Positions 10,441 through 38,904 are shown, numbered from the stretch's first letter. The stretch: 64,000 nucleotides of DNA from Bacteroidales bacterium (GCA_041662065.1 JBAZTE010000004.1:197620-261619), one strand, 5' to 3'. Numbers and translations are program-made. Notes: generated from the sequence alone by a model not told the origin.

Positions 10441-10537
10441 TCTTAAATCTAATTTTTGCCTTCTGCCTTTTGCCTTCTGCCCTGGTTCAAGGCATAAGGC
10501 ACAAGGCAGAAGGCAAAAATTAGTTGTAAGATTTAAG
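10441..10537. repeat. hairpin built from opposed heptamer arrays (NTGCCTT)x4 / (AAGGCAN)x4; likely rhaA terminator
   Basis: Left heptads at 10456-10483 and right heptads at 10489-10516, with outer arms TCTTAAATCT / AGATTTAAGA. Confidence 0.65.
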
Positions 10538-23536: not shown

Positions 23537-23573
23537 CTTGCAACTTGCAACCTGCAACCTGCAACCTGCAACA
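23537..23573 (+). repeat. GCAACCN heptamer array (about 5 units)
   Basis: CTTGCAA CTTGCAA CCTGCAA CCTGCAA CCTGCAA starts on the base after the wzz stop. Confidence 0.85.
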
Positions 23574-23581
23574 CTCTTACT

Positions 23582-25936
23582 ATGAAATATAAATACTTCT
23601 TATTAGCCCTCCTTCTCCTTGGAGCGCTCTCTTTCCCGCAATTCTCTCCGGCGCAGGAAATACAGAACGTAAAAGTCTCTGAGCTCACCGATGCCCAGAT
23701 CAAGCAATTGATGTCGGAGGTTTCGAAGCTTGGGATGTCGATGGAGGATGCGGCTGCACTGGCAAAGATGCGGGGTGCAACCGATGCACAGATCAAGGAT
23801 CTGATGGGACGAATTCTGACCATGAATCAGGCAAAGGAGAAAGACAGCACTCTGACGAACAAGGCTCAAGGCTCAAGGCTCAAGAATGAAGATTTAATGA
23901 AGAAAGAGAGGATAGGTAAGAAAGAGAAGAAAGAGGTGGATTCAATCGGAGTTGAGCGGAGGATCTTCGGTTTCGATTTGTTTAATAATGAGAACCTTAC
24001 TTTTGAACCCAGTGTAAACATCCAGACTCCCAAAGAGTATGTCATTGGTATCGGGGATGAGTTCATCATAAACATCTGGGGAGGATCCGAAGCACTTTAC
24101 CAATCAAAGGTGGACAAGAACGGCGCTATTCAGATTCCACAGATCGGGCCGATCTACGTGAACGGATTGTCCTATGAGGTGGCTGAATCCTTGATTCGCA
24201 AACGCCTGGCCAGTATTCACAACGGATTGGCAGGACTCAATCCCAATACTTATGCCATCGTTAATCTCGGTGGTCTTCGAAGTATTCAGATTACCGTGGT
24301 GGGCGATGTCATGACCCCTGGTACCTATACGTTACCGGCAACAGCGTCGCTCTTCAATGCCTTATACCAATCGGGTGGCCCCAATAAAACAGGTTCCTTC
24401 CGGGACATCCGGTTGATTCGAAATGGAAAGATATTGAGACACATAGATATTTACAATTTCCTGGTCAATGCCGATGCAACCGATAATATTCCATTGCGGG
24501 ACCAGGATGTAGTCTTTATTCCCACCTATCAAAAACGGGTCAGTGCCGATGGAGAATTCCTGCGTAATGGACTTTTTGAAATGAAAGGTCAGGAAACGCT
24601 TGGTGACCTGATTCATTTTACAGGCGGATTCACCAATAAAGCATTTCAATTCCAGGTAGCTGTCAATCGCAGAACTTCAACCGAAATGAAATTGCAGGAT
24701 ATCGATCCCGCAAGTTGGGGAAGTTTTGTCATGGAAAACGGGGATTCGGTAAAAGTGGGGAACATTCTGGACCGTTATGCTAACCGGGTTAAGATCGGGG
24801 GAGCCGTATTCCGTCCGGGTACGTTCGAACTGGTGAATGGCATGACGCTTCTTGATTTGATCACTAAAGCCGGAGGACTAAAGGAAGATGCCTACCTCAA
24901 CCGGGGCCAGATTCTCCGGTTAAAGGATAACGGCGATACGTTGTCAGTTGCTTTTGATGTGGCCAGTGTTTCTGCAGGAATTGAAACCGTTCCGTTATTT
25001 CGCGAAGACTCGGTATCCATAAAAACGGGTGTGGAATTGCGCGAAGAATATTATGTTGAAATACAGGGAGAAGTGAATAATCCGGGCGAGAAATCCTATT
25101 ACGATAATATGACGGTTCAGGATTTGGTATACCTGGCAGGAGGGTTTAAGGAGAGCGCCGATGTTAACGTGATCGAAATCGCCAGACGCCTGACTCATGA
25201 TGAAGCTGCTATACTGAGTGATTCGCTGGGTCATGTATTCACCGTCAGCGTACCCAGAGATTTAAAACCCGGGACCGATGATTCCAGATTTATTCTACGA
25301 CCATTTGATCTCGTATCGGTTAGAAAGGCTCAGGGTTACAGGGATCAGGGAAGTGTTGCTGTATCGGGTGAAGTACTCTATGCCGGTTATTATTCAATAA
25401 AGAGCAGGCAAAACCGGATCAGCGACCTGATCAAATGGTCAGGTGGACTGACCCCCGATGCCTATGTGGATGCAGCCAGACTATATAAAACAGATTCGAT
25501 TCCGGTTGGGATTGACCTTAAAAAGATATTGATTGATCACGGCAGCCGGCTGAATATGATTCTGGATCCAGGGGATTCCCTGTATATTCCCAAACAGCCG
25601 CAAATAGTCAATATCGTTGGTCAGGTACAAAAACCCTTTGCAAATACCTTTATTCCGAATAAGGGAGTCAAGTATTATGTTAAAAATGCAGGGGGATGGG
25701 CAGAATCTCCGGCTAAAAGAAGCATTTACGTGACCTATCCGGACGGGAGTTCCGACAACACCCGGACTTTTATCGTCCATCGTTATCCTCCGATCAAGCC
25801 AGGAAGTACAATCGTCATACCAAAAGAACCCGTAAAACCTCCTAAACCCGACAGAACAGCCGTCTGGCTGGCACTGGCCAGTACCATGTCTTCTATTGCA
25901 CTGACACTGGTGACGATATTGAATTTGACGAAGTAG
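23582..25936 (+). CDS. polysaccharide export protein, Wza-like with SLBB domains (copy 2)
   Basis: 784 aa with a signal peptide, YVIGIGDEFIINIWG, SLBB modules and a C-terminal helix. Confidence 0.85.
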   Translation: MKYKYFLLALLLLGALSFPQFSPAQEIQNVKVSELTDAQIKQLMSEVSKLGMSMEDAAALAKMRGATDAQIKDLMGRILTMNQAKEKDSTLTNKAQGSRLKNEDLMKKERIGKKEKKEVDSIGVERRIFGFDLFNNENLTFEPSVNIQTPKEYVIGIGDEFIINIWGGSEALYQSKVDKNGAIQIPQIGPIYVNGLSYEVAESLIRKRLASIHNGLAGLNPNTYAIVNLGGLRSIQITVVGDVMTPGTYTLPATASLFNALYQSGGPNKTGSFRDIRLIRNGKILRHIDIYNFLVNADATDNIPLRDQDVVFIPTYQKRVSADGEFLRNGLFEMKGQETLGDLIHFTGGFTNKAFQFQVAVNRRTSTEMKLQDIDPASWGSFVMENGDSVKVGNILDRYANRVKIGGAVFRPGTFELVNGMTLLDLITKAGGLKEDAYLNRGQILRLKDNGDTLSVAFDVASVSAGIETVPLFREDSVSIKTGVELREEYYVEIQGEVNNPGEKSYYDNMTVQDLVYLAGGFKESADVNVIEIARRLTHDEAAILSDSLGHVFTVSVPRDLKPGTDDSRFILRPFDLVSVRKAQGYRDQGSVAVSGEVLYAGYYSIKSRQNRISDLIKWSGGLTPDAYVDAARLYKTDSIPVGIDLKKILIDHGSRLNMILDPGDSLYIPKQPQIVNIVGQVQKPFANTFIPNKGVKYYVKNAGGWAESPAKRSIYVTYPDGSSDNTRTFIVHRYPPIKPGSTIVIPKEPVKPPKPDRTAVWLALASTMSSIALTLVTILNLTK
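23860..23884 (+). repeat. heptamer array (CAAGGCT)x3.5 inside wza copy 2
   Basis: CAAGGCTCAAGGCTCAAGGCTCAAG is read as (K)AQGSRLK. Confidence 0.8.
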
Positions 25937-25952
25937 GGAAGAGGGGGAGGAT

Positions 25953-26036
25953 GCGGGTTGCTGGTTGCTGGTTGCTGGTTGCTGGTTGCTGGTTGCAAGT
26001 TGCTGGTTGCAAGTTGCGGGTTGCTGGTTGTGGGTT
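25953..26036 (-). repeat. GCAACCN heptamer array, complement orientation (about 12 units)
   Basis: GCGGGTTGCTGGTTGCTGG...GTTGTGGGTT. Ends at the stop codon of the four-helix-bundle gene. Confidence 0.9.
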
Positions 26037-26400
26037 AGGTACGCCAGTTGTCTTCGACGTATTGGATGAAGTTATTTATTTGCTTACCAAGACCTTCATA
26101 TTCTGATATTAACTCATCAATTGGGTGTTGTTCAAAATGCAGAATATTTATCAAGTCCAACTGCGACATGGATTCATCACATGACGCTTGGGCAAAAATG
26201 AGATATCTTATAAATTCCATTTTGTACCGTCTCCGACCATAACCTTCGGCGATATTATCCTTAATGCTTTTAGATGATCTCCGAACCTGACTCCCCTGCT
26301 CATACATTTCATATTTAGGTAATGTCATGGTCATATGATGAACACGAATGGCCAGATTAAAAGCCTTTTGGTAAATCTCCAAATCTCTAAAACTTTTCAT
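26035..26400 (-). CDS. four-helix-bundle protein (23S rRNA intervening-sequence protein family)
   Basis: MKSFRDLEIYQKAFNLAIRVHHMT..LPKYEMYEQGSQVRRSSKSIKDNIAEGYGRR is the family signature. The ORF-track N-terminal extension to 26505 only translates the repeat array. Confidence 0.85.
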   Translation of the reverse strand: MKSFRDLEIYQKAFNLAIRVHHMTMTLPKYEMYEQGSQVRRSSKSIKDNIAEGYGRRRYKMEFIRYLIFAQASCDESMSQLDLINILHFEQHPIDELISEYEGLGKQINNFIQYVEDNWRT

Positions 26401-26413
26401 AGTATCTATTTTT

Positions 26414-26458
26414 AACCTGCAACCAGCAACCAGCAACCAGCAACCCGCAACCAGCAAC
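26414..26458 (+). repeat. GCAACCN heptamer array (about 6.5 units)
   Basis: AACCTGCAACCAGCAACCAGCAACCAGCAACCCGCAACCAGCAAC, inverted relative to 25953-26036. Confidence 0.9.
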
Positions 26459-26486
26459 AATATATAGACGCTAAATCCTGCCTCCA

Positions 26487-27569
26487 ATGGAAAAATCCCC
26501 ACCAAATCAAATCGACCTTTTCTCGATAGCCAAAACCTTGTGGCAGGGTCGGAAAACGGTCTTGTTATGGGTTATGATTGTTGTGATTGTTGGTTTGGTA
26601 ATTGCATTCTCCAGCCCCCGCGTTTACACAGCACGGACTGTTATGGTGCCGCAGGTGCAGTCGAAGAGTTCGGGCCTGGGGAGCCTGGGGAGTTTGGGAG
26701 GATTAGCGGCGATGGCCGGGATAAATCTGAGTAATCTGAATGCAGGCACAGAGGATATTTCACCGTTGGTGTATCCTGAGATTGTAAGAAGTTATTCGTT
26801 CCAGAAAGAAATTATGTATACACCACTCACCTGGAGATCGGTTGGTATGCCGGTCAGTTTGGTTGAGTATGTGCAGAAGTATCAGAGAATCGGATTATTT
26901 GGCAAGGTCAAGAAGGCCATTTTCAGGCTGCCGCGGACGGTTAAATCATGGTTTGCCAGGGAAGAAAGACCGATGGTTGCCGCTGCCGGTGATTCTTTAA
27001 CCCGGATCAGCGAAAACGAACAGGAATTGTGGGATGACATGTCTGAATCCCTGACCTTAAGCGTGGATAAGAAGAATGGTTTTATCACACTCACGGCATT
27101 GGGCCCCGAACCTCTGGTGACGGCCCAAATTGCCGATAAGGCAATGAACCTGCTGCAATCGAGGATCACGGAATTCCGCATCGAAAAGGCCCGGGAGAAC
27201 CTGAATTTCATACAGGGACGTTTCGATGACAAGAAAAAGGAATTTCAATCCACCCAGGATCGTCTGGCCCGCTTCCGCGACGGAAACCAGGGCATGAACT
27301 CCAACCGGGTGAAAACCGAGGAGGACCGTTTGCAAAGTGAATACCAGCTGGCATTCACGGTTTATTCGGAATTGGCAAAACAACTCGAGAGCGCTAAAAT
27401 TTCAGTAAAGGAGGACACCCCCGTTTTTTCAATCATCGAATCGGTTATTGTTCCGGTTAATCCTTCGAAGCCCAGGAAACTGGTGATTCTTATGTTTAGC
27501 TTCCTTTTGGGTGGTTTTTTAGGTATTGGTTTCCTGTTTGCCAAACAGCATTGGAACGAAGCAACCTGA
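26487..27569 (+). CDS. Wzz-type chain-length determinant protein (copy 2)
   Basis: 360 aa, colinear with 22427-23536 (..RKT.L......G...A..SP..YTA.TVMVPQ.. and ..ITEFRI.KA...L.FIQ.R..). Roughly one-third identical by eye. Confidence 0.8.
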   Translation: MEKSPPNQIDLFSIAKTLWQGRKTVLLWVMIVVIVGLVIAFSSPRVYTARTVMVPQVQSKSSGLGSLGSLGGLAAMAGINLSNLNAGTEDISPLVYPEIVRSYSFQKEIMYTPLTWRSVGMPVSLVEYVQKYQRIGLFGKVKKAIFRLPRTVKSWFAREERPMVAAAGDSLTRISENEQELWDDMSESLTLSVDKKNGFITLTALGPEPLVTAQIADKAMNLLQSRITEFRIEKARENLNFIQGRFDDKKKEFQSTQDRLARFRDGNQGMNSNRVKTEEDRLQSEYQLAFTVYSELAKQLESAKISVKEDTPVFSIIESVIVPVNPSKPRKLVILMFSFLLGGFLGIGFLFAKQHWNEAT

Positions 27570-27573
27570 CGTG

Positions 27574-28833
27574 ATGAGTCAATTCCGTTCAGGCATTGTT
27601 GGAAAGATTCGCCGGCATGGGGGTATTATCCAGAATTTTTCCTACCTGTCTGTCATCCAGCTGGTTAATCTCCTGGTAACCCTGGCAACCTATCCTTTTC
27701 TAATCCGGGTGCTCGGAAAGGAAGTGTTCGGATTGGTGGTGTACGCGCAGGCGATCATAACCTATCTGGTTGTACTCATCAGTTTCGGATTCCAGATCAG
27801 TGCAACACGGGAAGTTTCCATTCACCGGAATGATCCACGGAAGCTTAATGAGATATTCAGCAGTGTTCTGATTTTAAAGGGTTTATTATTCCTCGCTTCC
27901 GTTGGCCTGTTATTCCTGATAACCTTATTCATCCCGCAGGCCCGTGAACATAAGGTTCTTTTCCTTCTGAGCATGTTTACCTGCTTTTATGAGTTTATCT
28001 TTCCTTTCTGGTTTTTCCAGGGGATCGAAAAGATGGGTTATCTGACCCTCATAACCCTCATAACCAAACTAACTTTCTTTATCCTGATATTCCTGTTCAT
28101 CCGCAGCAAAAAAGACTATCTGCTGGTACCCCTGTTTAATGGGATCGGGTCGGTTCTTGCCGGTGTTATTTCCATCTGGATTGCGGTGGTCCGTGAAAAA
28201 GTCCGTTTCAGTTTCCAGCCATTCCATCGTCTTTGGCACTACTTTCGGGAAAGCAGCGCCCTCTTTGTTTCGAATTTCGCCAATCAGGTTTATGTAAATG
28301 CCAATAAAGTAATCGTAGGACTTTCATTGGGTATGGGAGAGGTCGCCCTGTATGATCTGGCAGAAAAGATCGTCCTGGCCATGAAAATCCCTCAAAACAT
28401 GTTGAATCAGGCGATTTTCCCAAAAATAATCAAGGAGCGCAATGTGGCATTTTCGAAAAAAATTCTCCTGTATTCCATGGTTGGCCAGGCAGCTTTTTTC
28501 TTTCTTATAGTCTTAACGTCTTCGGTCTTAGTTCTTCTTCTCGGTGGCAGGGAAATGTCGCAATCTACCGGTTTGTTACGCCTGTTGGCCTTAACCGTTC
28601 CCGTTAATGCAATCAGCAGCTTCCTTGGAATCCAGTTCCTTGTGGCGCATGGATTTAAAAGACTCTATACGAGGGTCATCGTTTTGTCGGTCGTGTTGTA
28701 TGCTTTGATGTGCACCGGGTTATGGGTAAATGGTTCAATAAGCCTGATTTCGGTTATCCTGGCTACCATCGCGACTGAAGTATTTGGTTTGGTTGCGATG
28801 ATGGTTATGGTGGGGAGGAGGAGGTTGGGGTGA
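27574..28833 (+). CDS. wzx: Wzx-type oligosaccharide flippase (copy 1)
   Basis: About 420 aa with 12 or more hydrophobic helices. N-terminal NFSYLSVIQLVNLLVTLATYPFLIRVLG is typical of the polysaccharide-biosynthesis (Wzx) family. Confidence 0.8.
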   Translation: MSQFRSGIVGKIRRHGGIIQNFSYLSVIQLVNLLVTLATYPFLIRVLGKEVFGLVVYAQAIITYLVVLISFGFQISATREVSIHRNDPRKLNEIFSSVLILKGLLFLASVGLLFLITLFIPQAREHKVLFLLSMFTCFYEFIFPFWFFQGIEKMGYLTLITLITKLTFFILIFLFIRSKKDYLLVPLFNGIGSVLAGVISIWIAVVREKVRFSFQPFHRLWHYFRESSALFVSNFANQVYVNANKVIVGLSLGMGEVALYDLAEKIVLAMKIPQNMLNQAIFPKIIKERNVAFSKKILLYSMVGQAAFFFLIVLTSSVLVLLLGGREMSQSTGLLRLLALTVPVNAISSFLGIQFLVAHGFKRLYTRVIVLSVVLYALMCTGLWVNGSISLISVILATIATEVFGLVAMMVMVGRRRLG

Positions 28834-28836
28834 AGT

Positions 28837-28890
28837 GGGTTGCGGGTTGCAAGTTGCTGGTTGCAAGTTGCTGGTTGCTGGTTGCTGGTT
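28837..28890 (-). repeat. GCAACCN heptamer array, complement orientation (about 8 units)
   Basis: GGGTTGCGGGTTGCAAGTTGCTGGTTGCAAGTTGCTGGTTGCTGGTTGCTGGTT, starting 4 nt after the wzx stop. Confidence 0.9.
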
Positions 28891-28940
28891 AGACAAGGCA
28901 TTCAGTGGGATAATTTGTGAAATAATTCAGGTCATTTTTT

Positions 28941-30269
28941 GTGTCAATTAGTGGAAGTAATTCTGTCCGTTGGCTGAAGAATGTCAACCCTGCAGAATGG
29001 GTTGATTTCCTGCTGATCAGCTATTTGTATTGGGTGGCGTTCGAGTGGACCATTCTTTCGAGGTTGGGGAATTACGGACTGATACAGGTGATCAGGAATA
29101 CGGTTGATCTGATTCCGATTGTCCTTTTACTGATCAGTATCATTGTTCTGAATCCAAAATTCAAAAGCCCTGAACTCAGGATATTCTCCGGTTTCGCCTT
29201 AATCATCATACTTTCGGCGATATCCTTGATTCTTGAGAGTACTGGGATCGCTCCTGTAACCGGCTATATCGGTGTTACAGTAAGATTTGTTCCGCTCATT
29301 GTTCTGGTCAGGTATACCAGCGTTGATTTTCAGCGGAAGTTGTTTAGTCAGGTAAGGATCATTTACTGGCTGCTCGCTGGACTCGGCCTGCTGAGTTTGT
29401 TCGGCAAAGATTGGTTCAACGGTCTTTTCCTGCCTTCGGTGGATGTTTTCGGTGAGGTAGTACCCACCACCTACAAGGATCCGGGAATAGGTGCCACGTT
29501 TATCAATACCGTAGAATTTGCCTTCTTTCTTCTCGGTCTTACGATTATCTATCTGGAGGGATCGCAATCAAAAAGGGAAAAGCTCTTTGTCAGCCTTCTG
29601 TCTTTTGTCTTATGTCTTTTGTCTTTCTCCATAGCTTCTGTCTTAGGTCTTTTTCTCATCTTCTTCCTCCGCAGTACCCGGAAAGTACTGGTAGCCACGG
29701 TTTTTACCGGATTGCTCATCATCGCTTTCCTGTTTTTCAATGGTTTTATCGTCCAGCTGCTCGGGATGGATATAAAATACTGGATTGAAATCTCGTCCGA
29801 GTTCAACCGGTTGGGCTACCTGACAAAAGTGTTCCCGGAGTTTTTGCACGGAGGCTTCAAGGATCTGTTCCTGGGAATGGGTTATGATGCCGGAGTGGTT
29901 GACCTGAAGTTGGCCAACTACCACAACACTCCGTTCGTGATGATCAACAACGAGAATAACCTGAAGTACCTGAAAGATGTATATTGGCTATCCATCCTGA
30001 TCGTCCAGGGATTCATCGCGTTCATTACCACTTTCTATATCCTGGTATCCGTTTGGATGGGCGCCGGGCGTGAAGGATCCGAAGCAAACTACCGGGCAGT
30101 AAAAATTTTTATTCTTTTGGCTTTATTCCTGGGGATGTTTAACCAGATTCTGGATATGAAAGCTTTTTCCTTTTGTTTCTGGCTGATGGCCGGAATGGCA
30201 CTGAATAAACCGGCTATTCTGACAGAGATATCGTTTGTTAAAACCCGTTTGTCGGGTGAAACCGCATGA
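28941..30269 (+). CDS. O-antigen polymerase/ligase-like (Wzy-type) polytopic membrane protein
   Basis: 442 aa with about 11 TM helices and a larger loop. Located between wzx and glycosyltransferases. GTG start. Confidence 0.55.
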   Translation: MSISGSNSVRWLKNVNPAEWVDFLLISYLYWVAFEWTILSRLGNYGLIQVIRNTVDLIPIVLLLISIIVLNPKFKSPELRIFSGFALIIILSAISLILESTGIAPVTGYIGVTVRFVPLIVLVRYTSVDFQRKLFSQVRIIYWLLAGLGLLSLFGKDWFNGLFLPSVDVFGEVVPTTYKDPGIGATFINTVEFAFFLLGLTIIYLEGSQSKREKLFVSLLSFVLCLLSFSIASVLGLFLIFFLRSTRKVLVATVFTGLLIIAFLFFNGFIVQLLGMDIKYWIEISSEFNRLGYLTKVFPEFLHGGFKDLFLGMGYDAGVVDLKLANYHNTPFVMINNENNLKYLKDVYWLSILIVQGFIAFITTFYILVSVWMGAGREGSEANYRAVKIFILLALFLGMFNQILDMKAFSFCFWLMAGMALNKPAILTEISFVKTRLSGETA

Positions 30270-31624
30270 AGAGACTGAAAGTACTGGTTTCAGCCCATGA
30301 ATTATCGCCATACCAGGGCTCCGAATGTGCAGTCGGGTGGAACCTGGTTACCCGGATAGCCCGTTATCACGACGTTACAGTTCTGTATGCGCGTGGCAGC
30401 CAGTTTTTCCCGGATGCTTACGAAACGGCCATCAGGAATTATTATACAGAGAACAAAAACGAGTTTAACATAAAATTTATTGCAGTTCCGCAACCCGATA
30501 CCACACTCTGGCTGGCAGCGATAAACAAGCGGATATCCAGGAACAGCTCCAGTATCGGCGTACCGTTTCTCTACTTCATCGGTTACCGGCTGTGGCAAAA
30601 AAGCGCCTACCGCATGGCCAAAACACAGGAACCATTTGACATCATCCATCATTTAACGTCCGTAACATTCAGAGAACCGGGTTATTTGTGGAGATTGCCA
30701 GTGCCCTTCGTATGGGGTCCAACGGGTGGAACCACAAATATTCCTATTCGTTTTTATCCGTTTATTGGGATCCGTGCTGCCAGTCATGAAGCTTTCCGTG
30801 CGATAACCAACCGACTGACACTTTGGTTCAGTTACAAGATTAGCCGGGCGATGAAAAAAAGCTCGCTGATCTACGCTTTTTCAGCGGAGGATCAGGCCTT
30901 GTTTCAAAGGAGGATGGTGAAGAGGGTGGAGGTGATGCTGGAGACCGGATGCGGGGAGGATGATGCAAGTTCCAATCAACCAGCAACCAGCAACCAGCAA
31001 CCTGCAACTTCCAATCATCTCCGCGTCCTCTGGTGCGGACGGTTGGTCAACTCTAAAGCGCTGGATATTTTACTTAAGGCCCTGGCAGGAGATCAGGATT
31101 TGATGAATCGGGTAAAGCTCACTATTGTGGGCGACGGTCCTTTGCGCAGTAAGTATGAAAAGCTGATCAAAAAGCTCTTCCCTCCAACCTGTAACCCGCA
31201 ACCTGCAACAAATATCTCTTTCACCGGCTGGCTCCCAAGGGATCAGGTAGTCCGCTGCATGAGGCAATCCGATGTGCTGGTCCATACCAGTTATCGGGAG
31301 GGTACCTCACACGTGATCCTTGAGGCACTATCTGCCGGCTTACCGGTAATCTGTCACGACATCAGTGGCATTTCCATCGCTGTGACCGGGGAATGCGGAA
31401 TCAAGGTTCCTTTAGTATCCTATAAAAAGAGCGTTCTCGGTTTCCGCGACGCGATTAGGGTTGCTAGTTGCAAGTTGCAAGATGCAAGTTGCTCCACACA
31501 AACTGCAACCGGCAACCTGCAACCTGCAACAAATCTCCGCTCGGGTGCCCTGAACAGGGCAAAAGAACTCTCCTGGGACTCGCTGGCCGAACGCATCTCC
31601 ACCGCTTATAATGATCTGCAATGA
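30266..31624 (+). CDS. GT4-family glycosyltransferase carrying three in-frame heptamer arrays
   Basis: GT-B layout. C-terminal domain ..VLWCGRLVNSKALDILLKAL.., ..SYREGTSHVILEALSAGLPVICHD.. (E-x7-E region). Confidence 0.8.
   Translation: MKRLKVLVSAHELSPYQGSECAVGWNLVTRIARYHDVTVLYARGSQFFPDAYETAIRNYYTENKNEFNIKFIAVPQPDTTLWLAAINKRISRNSSSIGVPFLYFIGYRLWQKSAYRMAKTQEPFDIIHHLTSVTFREPGYLWRLPVPFVWGPTGGTTNIPIRFYPFIGIRAASHEAFRAITNRLTLWFSYKISRAMKKSSLIYAFSAEDQALFQRRMVKRVEVMLETGCGEDDASSNQPATSNQQPATSNHLRVLWCGRLVNSKALDILLKALAGDQDLMNRVKLTIVGDGPLRSKYEKLIKKLFPPTCNPQPATNISFTGWLPRDQVVRCMRQSDVLVHTSYREGTSHVILEALSAGLPVICHDISGISIAVTGECGIKVPLVSYKKSVLGFRDAIRVASCKLQDASCSTQTATGNLQPATNLRSGALNRAKELSWDSLAERISTAYNDLQ
30969..31016 (+). 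repeat. GCAACCN array flanked by the 9-nt direct repeat TTCCAATCA, inside GT4 gene 1
   Basis: TTCCAATCA at 30969-30977 and 31008-31016. The 30 nt between is ACCAGCAACCAGCAACCAGCAACCTGCAAC. One repeat copy plus the array is 39 nt. Confidence 0.8.
31184..31210 (+). repeat. short GCAACCN array inside GT4 gene 1
   Basis: CCAACCTGTAACCCGCAACCTGCAACA is read as PTCNPQPAT. Confidence 0.7.
31458..31531. repeat. inverted pair of heptamer arrays (potential hairpin) inside GT4 gene 1
   Basis: GGGTTGCTAGTTGCAAGTTGCAAGATGCAAGTTGC (31458-31493) faces CTGCAACCGGCAACCTGCAACCTGCAACA (31503-31531). Read as VASCKLQDASCSTQTATGNLQPAT. Confidence 0.75.
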
Positions 31625-32871
31625 AGGTTCTCCTCATTAACAGGAATGACTTTGTGGATGGGGGAGCGGACCGGGTGTTTCTGAATACGTTTGATTTGTT
31701 GCAGGTTGCAGGTTGCGGGTTGCAGGTTGAGAAGTTTACAAGGGAAGATGTCGGGATGGAGACAATAGTTGATCCCCGCTCCTTATCAGTCTGGAAAAAG
31801 TTGCTGCATGTCAGAGACTATCTGTATAACCGTCGGGTGGCAGGTTGTCTGGATCGCAAAATCCAGGTGTTTCGTCCGGATGTGGCACATGTGCACCTGT
31901 TTTACGGGACCCTGTCAACCTCCATTTTAAAGGTTCTAAAAAAGAAAAAAGTACCGGTTGTCCTTACCGTACATGATTACCGGTTGCTTTGTCCGGCAAA
32001 TGCCATGCTCGACCGCCACGGACACATCTGTGAAAAGTGCTATAGAACAAAATATTATCAGTGTTTTATTAAACGGTGCTCCGGGGGAAATCTGTTTTTC
32101 AGCACAGTGATCATGCTGGAAGCCTACCTGAGAAAATGGATGTATAAACCAATAAAATTGATCGATCGCTTTATTTTCGTCAGTGATTTTAGCCGCAACA
32201 AGCATATTGAATTCGATCCGCGGTATATGGCAAAATCCATCCGGCTCTACAACATGGCCGACGAAAAACCTGGTATAATTCCAATAAAGGGTGACTATCT
32301 CCTCTTCTATGGAAGAATATCAAAGGAAAAAGGCCTGTTAACCCTGATCGAAGCAGTTAAAAACATTCAAGTAAAACTGATCATCGCCGGCCGCGGCCCT
32401 CAGGAAGAGGAAATAAAAAGACTGATAGACTATAAGACTATAAGACCCGCAACCAACAACCCGCAACCCGCAACCCGCAACCAGCAACCCGCAACCAGCA
32501 CCATCGACTTTGCCGGCTTCCTCTCAGGCAGCGAACTCGGGCAATTGATCCTTGGCTGCTCATTCGTGGTAGTTCCCTCGGAATGGTATGAAAACAATCC
32601 CATGACGGTGGTTGAGGCCTTCGCGCTGGGCAAGCCGGTCATCGGATCGCGGATCGGGGGGATACCCGAATTGGTAACTTCTGAAACCGGTTTTTTATTC
32701 GAACCCGGTAATCCTCTCTCACTGGCGGAGGCAATTGAAAAAGCTGTCAATCTATCCACAGAAAAATATAAAATGATGAGTGTTTCCTGCCGCGAATTTG
32801 CCAACATGAACTTTGACCGCAGGAAACATCTGGAACAACTTACCGGGATTTACCAACAAGTTGTGAATTGA
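31621..32871 (+). CDS. GT4-family glycosyltransferase carrying two in-frame heptamer arrays
   Basis: GGADRVF.., YGRISKEKG, PSEWYENNPMTVVEAFALGKPVIGSRIGGIPELV (E-x7-E). Confidence 0.85.
   Translation: MKVLLINRNDFVDGGADRVFLNTFDLLQVAGCGLQVEKFTREDVGMETIVDPRSLSVWKKLLHVRDYLYNRRVAGCLDRKIQVFRPDVAHVHLFYGTLSTSILKVLKKKKVPVVLTVHDYRLLCPANAMLDRHGHICEKCYRTKYYQCFIKRCSGGNLFFSTVIMLEAYLRKWMYKPIKLIDRFIFVSDFSRNKHIEFDPRYMAKSIRLYNMADEKPGIIPIKGDYLLFYGRISKEKGLLTLIEAVKNIQVKLIIAGRGPQEEEIKRLIDYKTIRPATNNPQPATRNQQPATSTIDFAGFLSGSELGQLILGCSFVVVPSEWYENNPMTVVEAFALGKPVIGSRIGGIPELVTSETGFLFEPGNPLSLAEAIEKAVNLSTEKYKMMSVSCREFANMNFDRRKHLEQLTGIYQQVVN
31696..31729 (-). repeat. GCAACCN array (complement orientation) inside GT4 gene 2
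   Basis: GTTGCAGGTTGCAGGTTGCGGGTTGCAGGTTG is read as LQVAGCGLQVE. Confidence 0.8.
32446..32502 (+). repeat. GCAACCN array (about 8 units) inside GT4 gene 2, preceded by a GACTATAA x2 octamer repeat
   Basis: CCGCAACCAACAACCCGCAACCCGCAACCCGCAACCAGCAACCCGCAACCAGCACC is read as RPATNNPQPATRNQQPATST. Confidence 0.85.
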
Positions 32872-32873
32872 CC

Positions 32874-33566
32874 ATGAAGCGCCTGATCAACACTATTGTC
32901 CGTAAGCTCGGAAGATCCGGCTACCGGTTGGATGACCATATCTCTTCTTACAGTCTTCTGGTCTTATTAGTCTCAAAGTCTTGCCAGCTGGTCCGGGGTT
33001 TGTGCCTCAAGGCTACGCTGAAAAAATCATCCGGACTGCTCTTTGTGGGCAGAAGATGCCGGATCAGGTACCGACACCTGATCACAACCGGAAAAACGCT
33101 GACTCTGGGTGATTATGTTGAAATCAATGCCCTCTCAAAAGCGGGGGTTCACCTGGGCGACAATGTGTCCATACTGAAAGGAACAATCATAGAATGTACC
33201 GGGGTCATGCGTAACCTGGGTGAAGGACTGACGATCGGGAACAATGTTGGGATCGCGCAGAACGGTTTTATCCAGGTCAGGGGGAAGGTGGTGATCGGCG
33301 ACAACGTCATTTTCGGACCGAATGTTTCCGTTTTCTCGGAGAATCACGTATTTGACAATCCGGATATCCCGGTTTCCATTCAGGGGGAGACCCGAAAAGG
33401 AGTCACCATTGAGGAAGGTGCCTGGATCGGCACCCGTGCTGTGATCCTCGACGGCGTAACGGTAGGCAGGAACAGCATTGTGGCCGCCGGGAGTATAGTC
33501 ACACGCGACGTGCCTGCATACACCGTGGTGGGCGGAGTGCCGGCGAAAGTACTTAGAAGCAGATAG
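32874..33566 (+). CDS. left-handed beta-helix (hexapeptide-repeat) O-acetyltransferase
   Basis: Hexapeptide repeats GDNV.I..G..I.., IGNNVGI, IGDNVIFGPNV, IGTRAVILDGVTVG, with C-terminal VGGVPAKV. Confidence 0.8.
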   Translation: MKRLINTIVRKLGRSGYRLDDHISSYSLLVLLVSKSCQLVRGLCLKATLKKSSGLLFVGRRCRIRYRHLITTGKTLTLGDYVEINALSKAGVHLGDNVSILKGTIIECTGVMRNLGEGLTIGNNVGIAQNGFIQVRGKVVIGDNVIFGPNVSVFSENHVFDNPDIPVSIQGETRKGVTIEEGAWIGTRAVILDGVTVGRNSIVAAGSIVTRDVPAYTVVGGVPAKVLRSR

Positions 33567-33614
33567 TTGCTAGTTGCTAGTTGCTAGTTCAACCAGCAAC
33601 CAGCAACCCGCAAC
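33567..33614. terminator. imperfect hairpin formed by (GTTGCTA)x3 facing (CAACCAG/C)x3.5
   Basis: Starts on the base after the TAG stop. The arms pair with about one mismatch per heptad. There is no T-tract, so terminator function is uncertain. Confidence 0.45.
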
Positions 33615-33637
33615 AAAAAGACCTCTAACACACTATC

Positions 33638-34531
33638 ATGAAACGAATCTACATCGCCGGATGCGGTGGTATGCTGGGTGATGCATTTTATGTGCGGTTT
33701 AAAGATACGTACAAGCTGAAATGCACCGACATCGATGTGAATTCCGACTGGCTTTCTTTCCTGGATTTCAGGGATTTGGAGGCCTACCGGAAAGATGTCA
33801 GGGAATTCAGGCCGGATTATCTGTTTCATTTGGGAGCGTATACTGACCTGGAGTATTGCGAAATGAATCCGGATGACACCTATCGTACAAACACTGAGGC
33901 AGTTGCGAATGCCGTTATAATCGCCAACGAACTGGATATCCCTTTGCTGTATATCAGCACTGCCGGGATCTTCGACGGCAAAAAGGATGTATATGATGAT
34001 TGGGATCTTCCCAATCCGATTGGTGTATATGCCCGGTCGAAGTATCTGGGAGAAAGGCATGTGGTGGAAAATGTTGAGAAACATCTGGTTTGCCGCGCCG
34101 GCTGGATGATGGGAGGTGGCCCGGGGAAGGATAAGAAATTCATCGGAAAACTGATGAGGCAGATCGGGGAGGGGAGCCAGGAACTGTTTATCGTGACGGA
34201 TAAGGATGGAACACCGACTTTTACCCATGATTTTGCCCTGAACGTGAAGGAACTCATCGAAAAGGAGCGCTGGGGGCTGTATAATATGGCCTGCGAAGGT
34301 TTTACCAGCCGGATGGAGGTTGCACAGGAACTGATCAGGTTACTGAACCTCCGGGAGAAGATTACCATCACCCCTGTTTCCTCGGATTACTACCGGGGAA
34401 CCTATTTTGCCCAGCGCCCTCCGAGTGAGCGCCTGGTAAACCGTAAACTGAGGAATCTCGGACTGAACCGCATGCGTAACTGGAGGATCGCACTGAAGGA
34501 TTATCTCGATAATCACTATTACGGGAATTGA
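33638..34531 (+). CDS. RmlD-like NAD(P)-dependent sugar reductase (SDR family)
   Basis: IYIAGCGGMLG (Rossmann fold), YARSKYLGE (YxxxK), about 297 aa as in dTDP-4-dehydrorhamnose reductases. Confidence 0.7.
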   Translation: MKRIYIAGCGGMLGDAFYVRFKDTYKLKCTDIDVNSDWLSFLDFRDLEAYRKDVREFRPDYLFHLGAYTDLEYCEMNPDDTYRTNTEAVANAVIIANELDIPLLYISTAGIFDGKKDVYDDWDLPNPIGVYARSKYLGERHVVENVEKHLVCRAGWMMGGGPGKDKKFIGKLMRQIGEGSQELFIVTDKDGTPTFTHDFALNVKELIEKERWGLYNMACEGFTSRMEVAQELIRLLNLREKITITPVSSDYYRGTYFAQRPPSERLVNRKLRNLGLNRMRNWRIALKDYLDNHYYGN

Positions 34532-34536
34532 GGACG

Positions 34537-35592
34537 ATGCGGAAAATCGCCATTATCGGATCTCACGGAATATATGCCAATTATGGCGGTTGGGACGAAC
34601 TGGTCCGGAATCTTGCCGAACGGAAACCGGAAGATCTGCAATACATCATCTTTAATTCGGCCGGCTATCCTGCTCAAAAAGAACCTCCTGATGGAGTAAG
34701 CATCCGGCAGTTGAAATTCAGGGCCGATGGATACCAGGGTCTGTTTTACGATTTCTGGTCGATCCTGGTCTGCTGGCGGAAAGCAAATACCCTGCTGCTC
34801 CTGGGCGCCCAGGGAATTCCACTGGCCGCTTTTCTGCGCCTGTTTCGCAAATTCAGGATAGTCGCCAATGCCGGCGGATTCGAATGGGAGCGGCCGAAAT
34901 TCGGTTTTTTTCTTAAACGATATCTGAAGTGGTGTTTCAATCTGAGCATGCGATACGCCGATACTGTTATCCTGGATAACCCCCATTACCGGAATTTTCT
35001 ACCCGAAAAGGTGAAGGCTGATGTCAAAGTTATACCCTATGGCGGTGAAATCGATACCAGCCTGGAAGTGAATGAAGGATTACTCGAAAAATACCCGTTT
35101 CTGGACAAGCCCTATTTTCTATCGGTCAGCCGCCCATTAAAGGATAATCAGCTGGAGGAGCTGTGCAGCAGCTTTATTGGATCGGACCACACACTGGTGC
35201 TGATTTCGAATTTTTCCAGCACTCCCTACGGGATATCGGTATTGAAGAAGTACAGGAGTATCGGTAACCTGATACTGATCAACGGGCTCTATGTGAAGCC
35301 GGAACTCGACCTCATCCGCCGGAAATGCAAGGCCTATATCCATACCCATACACTCTGCGGAACCGCACCTTCATTGGTTGAGATGATAATCGCCCAAAGG
35401 CCGGTCCTTTCGGTCGATAACCCCCAAAACAGGAACACCCTTCGGGAGGAAGGGTTTTTCTATAAATCCTTTACACAGGTTCACGAATTGATTAACAACG
35501 ATTCCGATCTGTCGCGGTACATTCCCCCGAAAGAGCTCTGCGACCGGTATCAATGGAGTACTATCGTTGCTGAATATGAATCAACCTTCTGA
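34537..35592 (+). CDS. DUF1972-type GT4 glycosyltransferase
   Basis: N-terminal KIAIIGSHGIYANYGGWDELVRNLAE matches the DUF1972 pattern (IIG.RGIPA.YGGFET). Confidence 0.7.
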   Translation: MRKIAIIGSHGIYANYGGWDELVRNLAERKPEDLQYIIFNSAGYPAQKEPPDGVSIRQLKFRADGYQGLFYDFWSILVCWRKANTLLLLGAQGIPLAAFLRLFRKFRIVANAGGFEWERPKFGFFLKRYLKWCFNLSMRYADTVILDNPHYRNFLPEKVKADVKVIPYGGEIDTSLEVNEGLLEKYPFLDKPYFLSVSRPLKDNQLEELCSSFIGSDHTLVLISNFSSTPYGISVLKKYRSIGNLILINGLYVKPELDLIRRKCKAYIHTHTLCGTAPSLVEMIIAQRPVLSVDNPQNRNTLREEGFFYKSFTQVHELINNDSDLSRYIPPKELCDRYQWSTIVAEYESTF

Positions 35593-36628
35593 TAAAAAGA
35601 AAATCCTGATCACCGGCGCCTATGGTTTCGTTGGCACTAATCTTTTGAAGGAGTTATGCAATGATTATCAATTAATTGCCCTTGACCTGGAATCCACCTC
35701 ACCCCCAACCCCCTCTCCCGCGCTCCCTTCGGTCACGGGAGAGGGGAAGGAGCCCTATTCAGACTTCTTCTCTTGGCAGGATCTGGATTCCATCCCCTGG
35801 GATACCCTCGACACCATCATCCACCTGGCTGGAAAGGCCCACGATACACGAAACATTGCTGATGAAAAGGAGTACTTTGAAGTCAATGTCGGGCTGACGG
35901 AAAAAATCGCTGAACGGTTTCAAAACTCGACTGCCCGTAAACTGATCTGTTTCAGCTCAGTAAAAGCAGTCGCCGATTCTTTTCCGGAAGGATTCTTAAC
36001 CGAAGAGACAACCCCGGCTCCAACCACGCCATACGGCCGATCCAAACTCGCCGCCGAGAAAATACTTCTGCAACCCGCAACCCGCAACCAACAACCTGCA
36101 ACCTGCAACCTGCAACCTGCAACCAGCAACCAGCAACCTGCAACCCGCAACCTCCTCTACCTCCTCCGCCCCTGCATGATCCACGGCCCCGGCAACAAAG
36201 GCAACCTGAACGAACTCGTCCGGTTTGTAAAAACAGGACTTCCCTGGCCGCTGGGCGCTTTTGAAAACCAGCGTTCCTTCACTTCAATTGCCAATTTGGT
36301 TTTTGTAATCAGGCAACTGATCGATAAGGAGATAGAGCCGGGCATTTACCAGGTGGCCGACGATGAACCGCTTTCAACGAATGAATTGATCAGGATGATT
36401 GCGTACTCGATGGGTAAAAGAGCGCGGATAATGAAACTTCCACCGGGTTTGATCAGGGGGCTGGCCCGATTGGGCGACCGTTTACCTTTTCCCCTGAACA
36501 GTGAACGTCTGCAGAAACTCACTGAATCCTACCGGGTCTCGAATCAGAAACTGAAAAATGCCCTCGGCATCGAACGAATGCCCGTAACCGCTGCCGAGGG
36601 GATGAGAAATACTCTTAAAACATTTTAG
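35576..36628 (+). CDS. NAD-dependent epimerase/dehydratase with two in-frame repeat insertions
   Basis: ILITGAYGFVGTNL, YGRSKLAAE (YxxxK), LRPCMIHGPG. Precedes the initiating sugar transferase. Confidence 0.8.
   Translation: MNQPSDKKKILITGAYGFVGTNLLKELCNDYQLIALDLESTSPPTPSPALPSVTGEGKEPYSDFFSWQDLDSIPWDTLDTIIHLAGKAHDTRNIADEKEYFEVNVGLTEKIAERFQNSTARKLICFSSVKAVADSFPEGFLTEETTPAPTTPYGRSKLAAEKILLQPATRNQQPATCNLQPATSNQQPATRNLLYLLRPCMIHGPGNKGNLNELVRFVKTGLPWPLGAFENQRSFTSIANLVFVIRQLIDKEIEPGIYQVADDEPLSTNELIRMIAYSMGKRARIMKLPPGLIRGLARLGDRLPFPLNSERLQKLTESYRVSNQKLKNALGIERMPVTAAEGMRNTLKTF
35710..35746 (+). repeat. GC hairpin CCCCTCTCCCG-N15-CGGGAGAGGGG inside the epimerase CDS
   Basis: Perfect 11-bp stem. Translated as part of ..TPSPALPSVTGEGKE.. 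Confidence 0.75.
36069..36152 (+). repeat. GCAACCN array, exactly 12 units (84 nt = 28 codons), inside the epimerase CDS
   Basis: Units counted by hand. Read as LQPATRNQQPATCNLQPATSNQQPATRN. Confidence 0.9.
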
Positions 36629-37315
36629 ATGAAGAGGTCATTTGACATTGTAATAAGTTTTCTCGCGATGGTCGTGGCTCTTCCTTTCATGATCCCGGTG
36701 ATGATCATTCTTAAACTGACCGGAGAGCACTATGTGTTCTATCGCCAGGCACGGGTCGGGCAACACGGGAAGAGCTTCAGGATGTATAAATTCTCCACCA
36801 TGCTGCTTAAGAGCCCCGAACTGCTCAGTGGCGACATCACACTCAGGAAAGATCCGCGGGTACTGCCTTTCGGCCGCTTTCTGAGGATCACCAAGATCAA
36901 TGAGATCCCTCAACTGATCAATGTGTTTAAGGGAGATATGTCATTGGTGGGTCCGCGGCCGATGCCCCCGGCTAATTTCAGCTTTTATACCCCCGGGGCT
37001 CAGGCGATGATCCTGAAACTTCAGCCCGGCATGACGGGTGTCGGGACCATCATCTTCCGGGAGGAGGAAGAGATGCTGGCCTCCAGCCCGCTGGGCCCCG
37101 AAGAGACTCACCGCCAATGGATGAGCCCGCACAAGGCCCGCCTCGAAGAATGGTACCTGAACAATCGCTCGCTTTGGGTCGATCTGAAAATCCTGTTCCT
37201 GACCCTCTGGGTGATACCATTCAAGGACAGCGCGCTGCCGTACCGGGTACTGAAGGGGCTGCCAGAGTTTCCGGGGGAGCTGAGAAAGGCGGCTGGCAAT
37301 GGGCGTGGCAATTAG
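36629..37315 (+). CDS. initiating phosphoglycosyl (bacterial sugar) transferase, small PglC/WbaP-C-terminal type
   Basis: KRSFDIV.S......LPF, RVG..GK.F.MYKF.TM, DPRV..FGRFLR...I.E.PQL.NV..G.MSLVGPRP. Confidence 0.9.
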   Translation: MKRSFDIVISFLAMVVALPFMIPVMIILKLTGEHYVFYRQARVGQHGKSFRMYKFSTMLLKSPELLSGDITLRKDPRVLPFGRFLRITKINEIPQLINVFKGDMSLVGPRPMPPANFSFYTPGAQAMILKLQPGMTGVGTIIFREEEEMLASSPLGPEETHRQWMSPHKARLEEWYLNNRSLWVDLKILFLTLWVIPFKDSALPYRVLKGLPEFPGELRKAAGNGRGN

Positions 37316-37460
37316 AGGTTGCGATTGTTATGATGGTTGTGATTGTTATGATAGTTATGATGGTTATGATGGTATGACCCAACCACAACAACCACAACAA
37401 CCATAACCACCATAACAACCATAACCACCATAACAACCATAACCACCACAACAACCACAA
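37316..37460. repeat. roughly 145-nt imperfect hairpin built from opposed 9-mer arrays (GTTATGATG-like / CAACCATAA-like)
   Basis: Left arm of about 7 units (37316-37378), right arm of about 9 units (37380-37460). Starts right after the TAG stop and ends 9 nt before the next GTG start. Confidence 0.8.
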
Positions 37461-37469
37461 CTTCTCTCC

Positions 37470-38900
37470 GTGCTCTCCAAATACCTCTACAACCTCCTCT
37501 TCATCCTCAGTAACATCCTGTTCCCGGTAGTCACCTTTTCCTGGGCAGCGCGGGTTCTGGGGCCGGAAGGGATTGGAAAAGTGCAGGTGGTGCTCAATTT
37601 CGCCCAGTATTTTGTTCTGATCGCCGCCCTGGGAATACCGGCATACGGGATGAGGGAGGTGGCCAAAGTGGTTGGGGACCCTACCAAACTCTCCAGACTG
37701 TTTTCCGAACTTTTAGTGATCAACCTGTTGACGACATTCGTTCTTTGTACCATTTATTTTATTGTTATATCATCAATCGGGTGGTTTCAACCGGATATCC
37801 ATCTTTATTATTTAGGAGGTGCCCTCGTTCTATCCGGTTTTCTAACCATCGACTGGTTTTATACCGGATCGGAACAGTTCAGATACCTATCGCTGAGGTC
37901 AGTGATAATAAAATCAATTTCCCTTGTTGCCCTGATTCTATTTGTGAGAACACCGCATGACCTGATTATCTATCTGTTTATCAATGTTCTGGCTACCATT
38001 ACGACCAATTTATGGAATCTGTTGAACCTGCCGGTGAAAATAAAGATCAGGTTGCGGAAACTGGAGTTGCGAAAGCACATGCCGGGTCTGCTGATTCTCT
38101 TTGGAACTACCCTGGTAATCAGCATGTATACCGTTATGGATATTTTGTTACTGGGGTTCCTGACAGATAACCGGTCGGTGGGTTTCTACACGGCGGCTAT
38201 CAAGATCAGCAAGATCATGATTCCGCTGATTGCCTCACTGGGAGTGGTGCTGATACCGAAAATTACAAGGAGTCTGGCCGAAGACGATATGAAATCCCTG
38301 AACACATTGACCGGCCAATCCTTTGCTTTCATCTGTTTGCTGGGCGTGCCGGTTTCGGCAGGTTTGCTGGTGTTTGCGCCTGAGATCATGCTCCTCTTTT
38401 CAGGATCAGGATTTACTGAAGCGATACCTGTCATGCAGATGACGTCCGCACTGGCATTGATCATCGGACTCGGGCACTTGTTCGGCCTGCAACTTTTAGT
38501 CCCGGGAGGTTATGAAAAGAAGTACCTGTATGCCACGATTCTGGGCATGATTACCAGCCTGGTTATCAATCTTACACTAATCCCTGTTATCCGTGAGAAG
38601 GGAGCAGCATTGGCCATTGTCCTCAGTGAGGCAGTGGTAACCGGGATGGCCTGGTATTACGTAAAAAAACTTTTACCTCTGAAATTCAACTGGTCCCTGA
38701 TACTAAATGCCGTCCTGGCCTGCCTGGTTTTTATTCCGGTTGCCATTCTGTTACGGAAATTAATTCCCGGACCGGTTCTGCGATTGACATTGGCAGTAGT
38801 TGTTTCTGCCGGGTTCTATTTTCTGATCCAGATAGCGGTTTTCCGGGAAAAACATGTCCGGGAGGCGGCCCTCCTGCTGGTAAACAACTGGTTAAGATAA
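37470..38900 (+). CDS. wzx: Wzx-type flippase (copy 2)
   Basis: 476 aa, polytopic. The N-terminal pattern ..ILFPVVTFSWAARVLGPEGIGKV is typical of the polysaccharide-biosynthesis/MOP family. GTG start. Confidence 0.75.
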   Translation: MLSKYLYNLLFILSNILFPVVTFSWAARVLGPEGIGKVQVVLNFAQYFVLIAALGIPAYGMREVAKVVGDPTKLSRLFSELLVINLLTTFVLCTIYFIVISSIGWFQPDIHLYYLGGALVLSGFLTIDWFYTGSEQFRYLSLRSVIIKSISLVALILFVRTPHDLIIYLFINVLATITTNLWNLLNLPVKIKIRLRKLELRKHMPGLLILFGTTLVISMYTVMDILLLGFLTDNRSVGFYTAAIKISKIMIPLIASLGVVLIPKITRSLAEDDMKSLNTLTGQSFAFICLLGVPVSAGLLVFAPEIMLLFSGSGFTEAIPVMQMTSALALIIGLGHLFGLQLLVPGGYEKKYLYATILGMITSLVINLTLIPVIREKGAALAIVLSEAVVTGMAWYYVKKLLPLKFNWSLILNAVLACLVFIPVAILLRKLIPGPVLRLTLAVVVSAGFYFLIQIAVFREKHVREAALLLVNNWLR

Positions 38901-38904
38901 TCTG

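Follow-up and report, generated by a model that had tools for sequence, protein, structure and literature searches.

A 9-nt direct repeat around a heptamer array in a Bacteroidales glycosyltransferase gene: probably the edges of one old, degenerate microsatellite

This report concerns a short array of heptanucleotide repeats inside a gene for a GT4-family glycosyltransferase, found in a stretch of 64,000 nucleotides (nt) of Bacteroidales DNA (GCA_041662065.1 JBAZTE010000004.1:197620-261619) that we call the window and in which positions are counted from its first letter. The array lies between two copies of a perfect 9-nt direct repeat, TTCCAATCA, for which the initial annotation had offered either an insertion event with target duplication or a duplication generated by slippage, allowing also for coincidence. 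The reading that we favour, and rate as somewhat better than even, is that 30964-31019 represents in its entirety a single heptanucleotide microsatellite, old and partly degenerate, with the unit NGCAACC (or GCAACCN), which sits in frame in a disordered linker between the domains of the enzyme and whose evolution is driven by slippage. Target duplication does not hold up, since orthologues have no empty site with a single copy, the bracket is made of array-like units and a survey of 334 arrays reveals no general footprint. A duplication generated by slippage fits best, in keeping with a linker that has gained three units relative to its orthologues and with the longer periods seen in other arrays of the window.

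The bracket and its array

On the + strand, TTCCAATCA occurs twice in the gene, at 30970-30978 and 31009-31017; the direct repeat is therefore real, although the coordinates first given for it (30969-30977 and 31008-31016) were one base low. Between the two copies lie 30 nt, ACCAGCAACCAGCAACCAGCAACCTGCAAC (30979-31008), just as the initial annotation described, and the copies are spaced 39 nt apart, that is, one repeat copy plus the array, or 13 codons, which keeps the reading frame and leaves the open reading frame (ORF) at 30266-31624 intact. The match extends beyond 9 nt: TGCAAGTTCCAATCA (30964-30978) and TGCAACTTCCAATCA (31003-31017) agree at 14/15 positions and follow the pattern TGCAA[G/C]TTCCAATCA.

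The core of the array (30978-31005, + strand) consists of AACCAGC three times (30978-30998) and AACCTGC once (30999-31005), encodes part of SNQPATSNQQPAT and lies within a Tandem Repeats Finder row at 30977-31008 (period 7, 4.6 copies, 96% matches) of head-to-tail 7-nt units, of which only three are identical before variants begin. The insert at 30979-31008 is a plain direct heptamer array with neither terminal inverted repeats nor fixed ends. The site region folds no better than shuffled sequences (RNA structure z -1.3), and an Rfam search of the window returned only two tRNAs, with no known RNA family at the array site.

Both edges resemble the array that they enclose. The left bracket (30964-30978, + strand, holding the 9-mer at 30970-30978) reads as the degenerate heptamer units TGCAAGT and TCCAATC, placed 3-4 nt out of register with the core. 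The right bracket (31003-31017, + strand, holding the 9-mer at 31009-31017) is in register with the core, the series running AACCAGC three times, AACCTGC, AACTTCC (31006-31012) and AATCATC (31013-31019), and the last two, which continue the core, are each 5/7 identical to the heptamer unit. In both copies the bracket is made up of two units, TGCAAsT and TCCAATC, which form the variant block TGCAA[G/C]TTCCAATC, and both have two substitutions in common, G>C and C>T, relative to TGCAACT-TGCAACC. The 15-mer is also 13/15 identical (two mismatches allowed) to TGCAACTTGCAACCA at 39770, the first bases of a 14-unit array, and GCAACTT GCAACC opens the arrays at both 23540 and 39771. The left junction, TCCAATC-AACC-AGCAACC, contains a register break of 3 nt (one codon). 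Judged from these units, the bracket is array-like, two degenerate heptamers that would not be target DNA, and the entire segment 30964-31019 is heptamer-derived, with a single one-codon break in register.

As a word, TTCCAATCA is unremarkable, with three copies in the window (the third on the - strand, 40872-40880) against 1.4 expected, and for a 9-nt match lying anywhere within 20 nt of both array ends the null gives a per-array probability of about 0.003-0.006. Flush brackets were tested with in-register matches left out and null positions repeat-masked, as a guard against the arrays' own periodicity; by this measure, a given array would show a perfect 9-nt bracket, flush and out of register, with a probability of about 0.001 under the null, and 334 arrays together would be expected to yield about 0.02 flush brackets of 14/15. 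Because both its placement and its 14/15 flush match are so rare under the null, the bracket is a real duplication and chance an unlikely source of it.

The sample for this survey comprised 334 period-7 arrays from the window and 122 loci, namely L002 and L003 (which hold orthologues of the gene, as described below) and the stretches, at least 120, that a scan of genome contigs matched with GCAACCNGCAACCNGCAACCNGCAAC. The near matches that a general footprint would leave are no more frequent than the null predicts: flush brackets of at least 7/9 were observed 39 times (39 expected) and those of at least 8/9 seven times (5.9 expected). Perfect 9-nt flush brackets are nominally enriched, with 3/334 against about 0.3 expected, an excess that rests on three cases (the window, L005 and L074), and the remaining 331 arrays have none. 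Among these are the other 21 of the window's 22 period-7 arrays, in line with the remark in the initial annotation that it had found no comparable flanking repeats at other arrays. A looser flank test, which looked up to 20 nt from either end for the longest substring common to the two flanks in 46 and then 315 arrays, gave no general signal either. As a class, heptamer arrays carry no target-site duplications.

The two other perfect brackets are found in other genomes. In L005, from a Lysobacterales metagenome-assembled genome (MAG), the array (5369-5414) with its bracket ACCGCTCCT is intergenic and lies just 3' of an ABC-2 permease gene, by its stop codon, a position that offers no protein-anchored comparison with an empty site. 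In L074, from a Gemmatimonadaceae MAG, the array is at 3382-3421, and its bracket, ACTCCTCGC, again consists partly of array units. The matches listed for GCAACCNGCAACCNGCAACCNGCAAC come from Bacteroidota, Acidobacteriota, Verrucomicrobiota, Planctomycetota, Chloroflexota, Desulfobacterota-type MAGs, Gemmatimonadota, Streptomyces, Vibrio and Moorena; among them (loci L005-L124), GCAACCN arrays occur in genomes of at least 10 phyla, mostly as one array per 8 kb, compared with 16 in 17 kb in the window.

The linker and its orthologues

The gene (30266-31624, + strand), identified by its ORF, Pfam matches and synteny with loci L001, L002 and L003, encodes a GT4-family glycosyltransferase (GT-B fold) of 452 amino acids, which matches PF00534 (Glycos_transf_1), PF13692 (Glyco_trans_1_4) and PF20706 (GT4-conflict) and has 100% identity with a protein from a Bacteroidales MAG that carries the annotation GT4. 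The heptamer-derived linker corresponds to codons 234-251 (30965-31018, + strand; ASSNQPATSNQQPATSNH) and is delimited by an AlphaFold2 model and by the Pfam limits, the C-terminal domain starting at about residue 242-253. Site 1, as we call the position of the array, thus follows the last N-terminal-domain strand and precedes E252-257, the first beta-strand of the C-terminal Rossmann domain. The AlphaFold2 model, built on an alignment of 21 sequences, is a confident one (mean predicted local distance difference test, pLDDT, 86.7; predicted template-modelling score, pTM, 0.85), in which pLDDT falls below 50 only where the protein is encoded by its three arrays (residues 234-246, 311-313 and 415-419). 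On this model, the array sites are predicted to be permissive loops and the encoded linker to be disordered. Since 7 and 3 share no factor, a forward array yields one and the same peptide of seven residues (ATSNQQP and variants) whichever frame is read, and this peptide is hydrophilic and linker-like. GCAACCN is stop-free in all six frames; this does not make the unit special, as 50% of all heptamers are likewise stop-free.

Among 5.8 billion proteins, the nearest relatives are P0002 and P0003 (69% and 66% amino-acid identity), which are encoded at the syntenic loci L002 and L003, and a more distant one, P0007 (locus L125, 8001-9587), is 55% identical. In the alignment of 21 homologues, the closer orthologues have low-complexity inserts in these same three loops, and the distant ones have none. 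Codon-level alignment reveals heptamers at site 1 in both of the nearest relatives, of CCGATAC type in P0002 and of CCGACAA type in P0003, and the linker arrays of the window, P0002, P0003 and P0007 fall in one 7-nt register when anchored on the conserved downstream codons for L-W-C/V-G, an agreement of three orthologue registers that has a chance expectation of about (1/7)^3. The empty site with a single TTCCAATCA, for which the initial annotation proposed to search the orthologues, is seen in none of P0002, P0003 and P0007, all of which have heptamer arrays in the same linker. These alignments suggest that the array either predates the divergences concerned or was re-created at exactly the same place and in the same register.

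The shared register bears directly on the right-hand copy of the repeat. TCCAATC, the core of that copy, fills in the window the slot that is taken in the orthologues by the last unit of the array (TGCAACC in P0007, GACAACC in P0003, GATAACA in P0002), and because of this correspondence the right-hand copy would itself be the degenerate terminal unit of the array. The linker measures 75 nt in the window versus 54 nt in P0002 and P0003, a difference of +21 nt, which is three units or seven codons. Conservation of position is not restricted to site 1, as all five in-gene array sites of two adjoining GT4 genes (three in this gene and two in the next) are found at the same positions in L002 and L003, and on this evidence all of them appear to be old.

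Alleles were compared between assemblies of the same organism. L001 (Logan SRR18595301) is identical to the window over 9.7 kb, arrays included, and L004 (JGI Ga0172379) is 99.96% identical over 2,534 nt, again with identical arrays. A metagenome scan anchored on the right 9-mer and the bases downstream of it retrieved a single contig, L004, with the same filled allele, and no empty-site or length-variant allele; a scan of genome contigs for close relatives of the GT4 protein produced 82 pattern matches, none of which was confirmed. The L004 contig (Ga0172379_10084242), which is independent of the window, ends inside the second array of the gene, at window 31181-31209, which fits the notion that heptamer arrays break short-read assemblies.

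Some relatives display more complex arrangements. In P0007, the linker before VLWVG consists of an inverted array followed by a direct one, which together form a near-palindrome, GTTGCAAGTTGCAGG...CCTGCAACCTGCAAC, whose direct half is in the 7-nt register of the window; this arrangement points to strand-switch events occurring at the linker site. In P0004 (a Logan contig of 2.3 kb; alignment columns 290-600), the segment that normally lies between sites 1 and 2, at the start of the C-terminal domain, is found at site 3; either the heptamer arrays of the gene have recombined with one another or a de Bruijn assembly has gone wrong across them. At site 3 of P0003 (L003, ~11250-11330), a GC-rich palindrome, CCCCCTCTCCCG ... 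CGGGAGAGGGGG, lies within the ORF beside the heptamer array, as if this loop tolerated a repeat element of a second kind.

Slippage and its alternatives

According to the explanation that we favour, the array would have evolved by replication slippage and multi-unit duplication, with selection retaining only those length changes that preserve the frame. Each copy of TTCCAATCA would belong to the same degenerate block of two units, TGCAA[G/C]T-TCCAATC-A. The right block would be the ancestral 3' end of the array and the left block a second copy of it placed at the 5' edge, which could be either (i) what is left of an older two-unit higher-order repeat after the AACCAGC variant had expanded and replaced its middle, or (ii) the product of a slipped or misaligned copying event. 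A one-codon (3-nt) break in register at the left junction would account for a spacing of 39 nt rather than 42, and the outcome would be a younger, pure core between the same degenerate block at either edge. Multi-unit events seem to be routine here, because higher-order periods of 14 or 21 nt are present in several other arrays of the window. The order of events and slippage itself are inferred. A simple tandem duplication of 39 nt was considered and rejected, since only 15/39 nt are repeated; an 18-nt tandem duplication followed by a 21-nt expansion meets a match that stops at 15 nt and has no extra support.

Several points weigh against this account. The 39-nt spacing is not a multiple of 7, and a further event, the deletion of one codon or a break in register, has to be assumed ad hoc, and a repeat of 15 nt is less than the full 39 that simple tandem duplication would leave. 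At 69% identity, the nearest orthologue is too distant for the stepwise history to be reconstructed, and arrays could, strictly speaking, have arrived independently at one permissive site. The inverted array in the 5' half of the P0007 linker shows that events other than slippage have taken place at this site, and perfect flush 9-nt brackets are nominally enriched in the survey.

Among other explanations, we regard as unlikely a templated insertion by microhomology-mediated template switching (similar to fork stalling and template switching or microhomology-mediated break-induced replication, FoSTeS/MMBIR), in which an insert becomes flanked by a short duplication without any mobile element. 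The nascent strand would exit after ...TTCCAATCA, copy ~24-30 nt from another GCAACCN array and return when its TGCAA end pairs with the TGCAA situated 10 nt upstream of the exit point, whereupon TTCCAATCA would be recopied. Such an event would produce exactly the repeat-insert-repeat geometry, and TGCAA microhomology, common to the heptamer unit, is indeed present at one junction of the bracket, where the repeat runs into it. Possible donor arrays abound nearby, opposed arrays and palindromes of the kind that strand switching produces are present in the P0007 linker and at site 3 of the GT4 gene, and the perfect brackets exceed expectation, L005 being a clean intergenic case. However, the right-hand copy and the units preceding it are in the register of the orthologues and look ancestral rather than newly inserted, and without the insert and one copy of the repeat the linker would fall 18 nt short of those of P0002 and P0003 and be devoid of an array. 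Moreover, no donor with the AAAT order of units is present in the 64-kb window, near-perfect brackets are not enriched although decaying footprints would give rise to them, and the proposed re-annealing end contains a G/C mismatch.

Coincidence, whereby two low-complexity flanks derived from heptamers would share a 9-mer by chance, we consider slightly less credible still. In the loose test, the per-array probability translates to roughly 0.07-0.13 over the 22 arrays of the window, both flanks stem from one unit family, which raises the odds of a match, and the whole 64-kb window had been scanned for oddities. Yet the match is flush with the array and reaches 14/15, a result expected only about 0.02 times in the entire sample, and both copies share the same derived substitutions, which argues for copying and not for independent decay.

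It is doubtful, too, that GCAACCN arrays, besides arising by local slippage, are seeded at new sites by copy-and-insert, that is, by template switching onto an existing array, with fresh insertions marked by a short flanking duplication, often of 9 nt. If this were true, the brackets of the window, L005 and L074 would be rare young footprints, and the dominance of a single unit family in a genome, as well as its recurrence in at least 10 phyla, would be explained.

That the array is a contingency locus, in which gain or loss of one 7-nt unit would switch the glycosyltransferase on and off by frameshift (phase variation) and the bracket would be incidental, we hold to be very unlikely. The unit is not a multiple of three and lies inside a gene for surface-polysaccharide synthesis, arrays are concentrated in the polysaccharide locus (23.5-40 kb), and switches based on simple repeats, heptanucleotides included, are documented in Haemophilus influenzae (PMC2651432, PMC8262952). 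Here, however, there are only three perfect units, the arrays of all genes are in frame, differences between orthologues are in-frame and the alleles of L001 and L004 are identical at every array covered (9.7 kb, and 2.5 kb at 99.96%), while the same arrays also occupy intergenic regions.

Least credible of all, and largely refuted here, is a target-site duplication left behind by a mobile element that a transposase or integrase would drive and that would have the heptamer array as cargo, for although the geometry is right, 9 nt is a common target-duplication length and one unit family is dispersed over at least 16 sites in 17 kb, the insert is a plain direct array without terminal inverted repeats or fixed ends, arrays vary in length and unit composition, nearly all arrays of the survey are unbracketed with near matches distributed as in the null, the orthologues have arrays in the same register instead of an empty site, and the supposed target sequence itself consists of array units.

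Arrays of the polysaccharide locus and other bacterial heptamers

The array in the linker, probably an old slippage-driven microsatellite, is one of a larger set. At least 16 arrays with GCAAC cores at 7-nt spacing, 11 on the + strand and five on the - strand, all lie between 23.5 and 40 kb of the window, within a polysaccharide locus with genes for Wzz, a Wza-like exporter, a flippase, a polymerase-like membrane protein, two GT4 enzymes, a hexapeptide acetyltransferase, epimerases and a GT2 enzyme. They are both intergenic and in genes (three sites in this GT4 gene, two in the next, one in an epimerase gene and one in a GT2 gene), differ in length and unit composition (2-14 copies) and, where they are in genes, are all in frame; L003 has further arrays of the GCAACCN family. 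GCAAC-type arrays are absent from the low-GC part of the window at 42-64 kb. GC content is 0.45-0.51 in the array-bearing cluster (23500-40000) versus 0.34-0.42 in 42000-64000, where ORFs are also co-directional on the + strand, which suggests that the two parts differ in origin or age.

In the GT4 gene itself, the second array (31181-31209, + strand), of CCTGCAA type, encodes PPTCNPQPATN in the loop with residues 311-313, and its position is common to the orthologues and the adjoining paralogous GT4 gene. The third site (31460-31530, + strand), in the loop with residues 415-419, consists of opposed arrays, GTTGCAA at 31460-31492 (x4.7) and CAACCTG at 31499-31530 (x4.6), which form a hairpin inside the ORF (-30.4 kcal/mol, z -3.6). 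In the second GT4 gene (31621-32871), the array at 32445-32500 is in a loop that corresponds in structure to site 2 of the first and precedes the ...F[TA]G[WF]L strand, and the same loop is therefore occupied in paralogues as well as in orthologues. The longest arrays, at 36068-36153 (12 units, in an NAD-dependent epimerase domain) and 39771-39874 (14 units, at the GT2 protein's C-terminal end), are both in frame, and the latter reaches the overlapping start of a UDP-GlcNAc 2-epimerase gene. Two intergenic regions contain opposed repeats, with 9/18-nt units GGTTGTGAT / CAACCATAA at 37317-37461 and heptamers TGCCTTC / CAAGGCA at 10457-10515, which may act as hairpin or terminator-like elements. 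At 1965-2155 on the - strand, two tandem tRNA-Leu genes (anticodons CAG and GAG) are called as a 106-nt repeat by Tandem Repeats Finder.

With the insertion-footprint reading failing, the bracket in particular matters little and is an ordinary case; of some interest are the arrays that lie so densely inside genes of the polysaccharide locus. They offer a clear example of a microsatellite with a non-triplet (7-nt) unit that is stable inside enzyme genes, where it persists because the loops are disordered and length changes in steps that preserve the frame, and in which array positions (and register at site 1) are conserved among orthologues while unit sequence drifts. This has a bearing on the origin of low-complexity linkers in bacterial proteins. 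The arrays also account for breaks and possible chimeras in assemblies, as in the end of L004 and the rearranged look of P0004, and they extend what is on record for bacterial heptamer repeats, a poorly understood group, by a case from Bacteroidales and by GCAACCN as a unit of wide distribution.

The STRR sequences of cyanobacteria are dispersed heptanucleotide tandem repeats. Heptamer repeats are reported to be generally over-represented in bacteria, which has been attributed to polymerase slippage, and GGGAATC repeats are known from Xanthomonas (PMC4692102); TAACTGA arrays are dispersed in Beggiatoaceae, Cyanobacteria and five Bacteroidetes, some of them in ORFs at the periphery of proteins (PMC4679880). 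The arrays described here resemble these three families in that (i) 7-nt units of one family, with variable positions, are arranged head to tail, (ii) many short arrays (of 2-14 copies in the window) occur on both strands, sometimes as opposed pairs capable of forming hairpins, (iii) length and sequence vary between relatives at conserved positions, here in unit steps, and (iv) an array occasionally lies within an ORF, in a peripheral or non-domain part of the protein. They differ in that GCAACCN is stop-free in every frame whereas TAACTGA cannot be read through in forward orientation, in that an unusually large share of them is in genes, in frame and in enzyme loops, the others being mostly intergenic, and in that their positions, and the register at site 1, are conserved among orthologues down to ~55% identity.

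Other repeat systems can be compared as well. Repeat-driven switches are known in glycosyltransferase genes of Haemophilus and Pasteurella, and the simple sequence repeat (SSR) contingency loci in lipooligosaccharide (LOS) and capsule glycosyltransferase genes of Haemophilus, Neisseria and Pasteurella (PMC2651432, PMC9176279) share with the present case a non-triplet repeat, presumably subject to slippage, in the ORF of a surface-polysaccharide glycosyltransferase. The tract described here is, however, short, imperfect and located in a mid-gene linker instead of near the 5' end, its length is the same in the assemblies compared and it differs from orthologues by in-frame amounts; in their behaviour the arrays are variable linkers, not on/off switches. 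The likeness to target-site duplications of insertion sequences (IS) and miniature inverted-repeat transposable elements (MITE) is one of geometry only, a short direct repeat of 9 nt on either side of a repetitive insert, and terminal inverted repeats, a constant insert, an empty site and brackets at other arrays are all lacking, the bracket here being built of the insert's own unit. Parallels are also provided by micro- and minisatellites, with which the array shares a pure AACCAGC core between older, degenerate units, the same variant block at both edges, higher-order periods of 14 and 21 nt nearby and length changes by whole units, although the 3-nt register break between the left block and the core, and the selection on reading frame that restricts changes, set it apart from them. 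The array in this GT4 gene is a further case of dispersed bacterial heptanucleotide repeats, notable for the density of such arrays in frame within genes and for the conservation of their positions.

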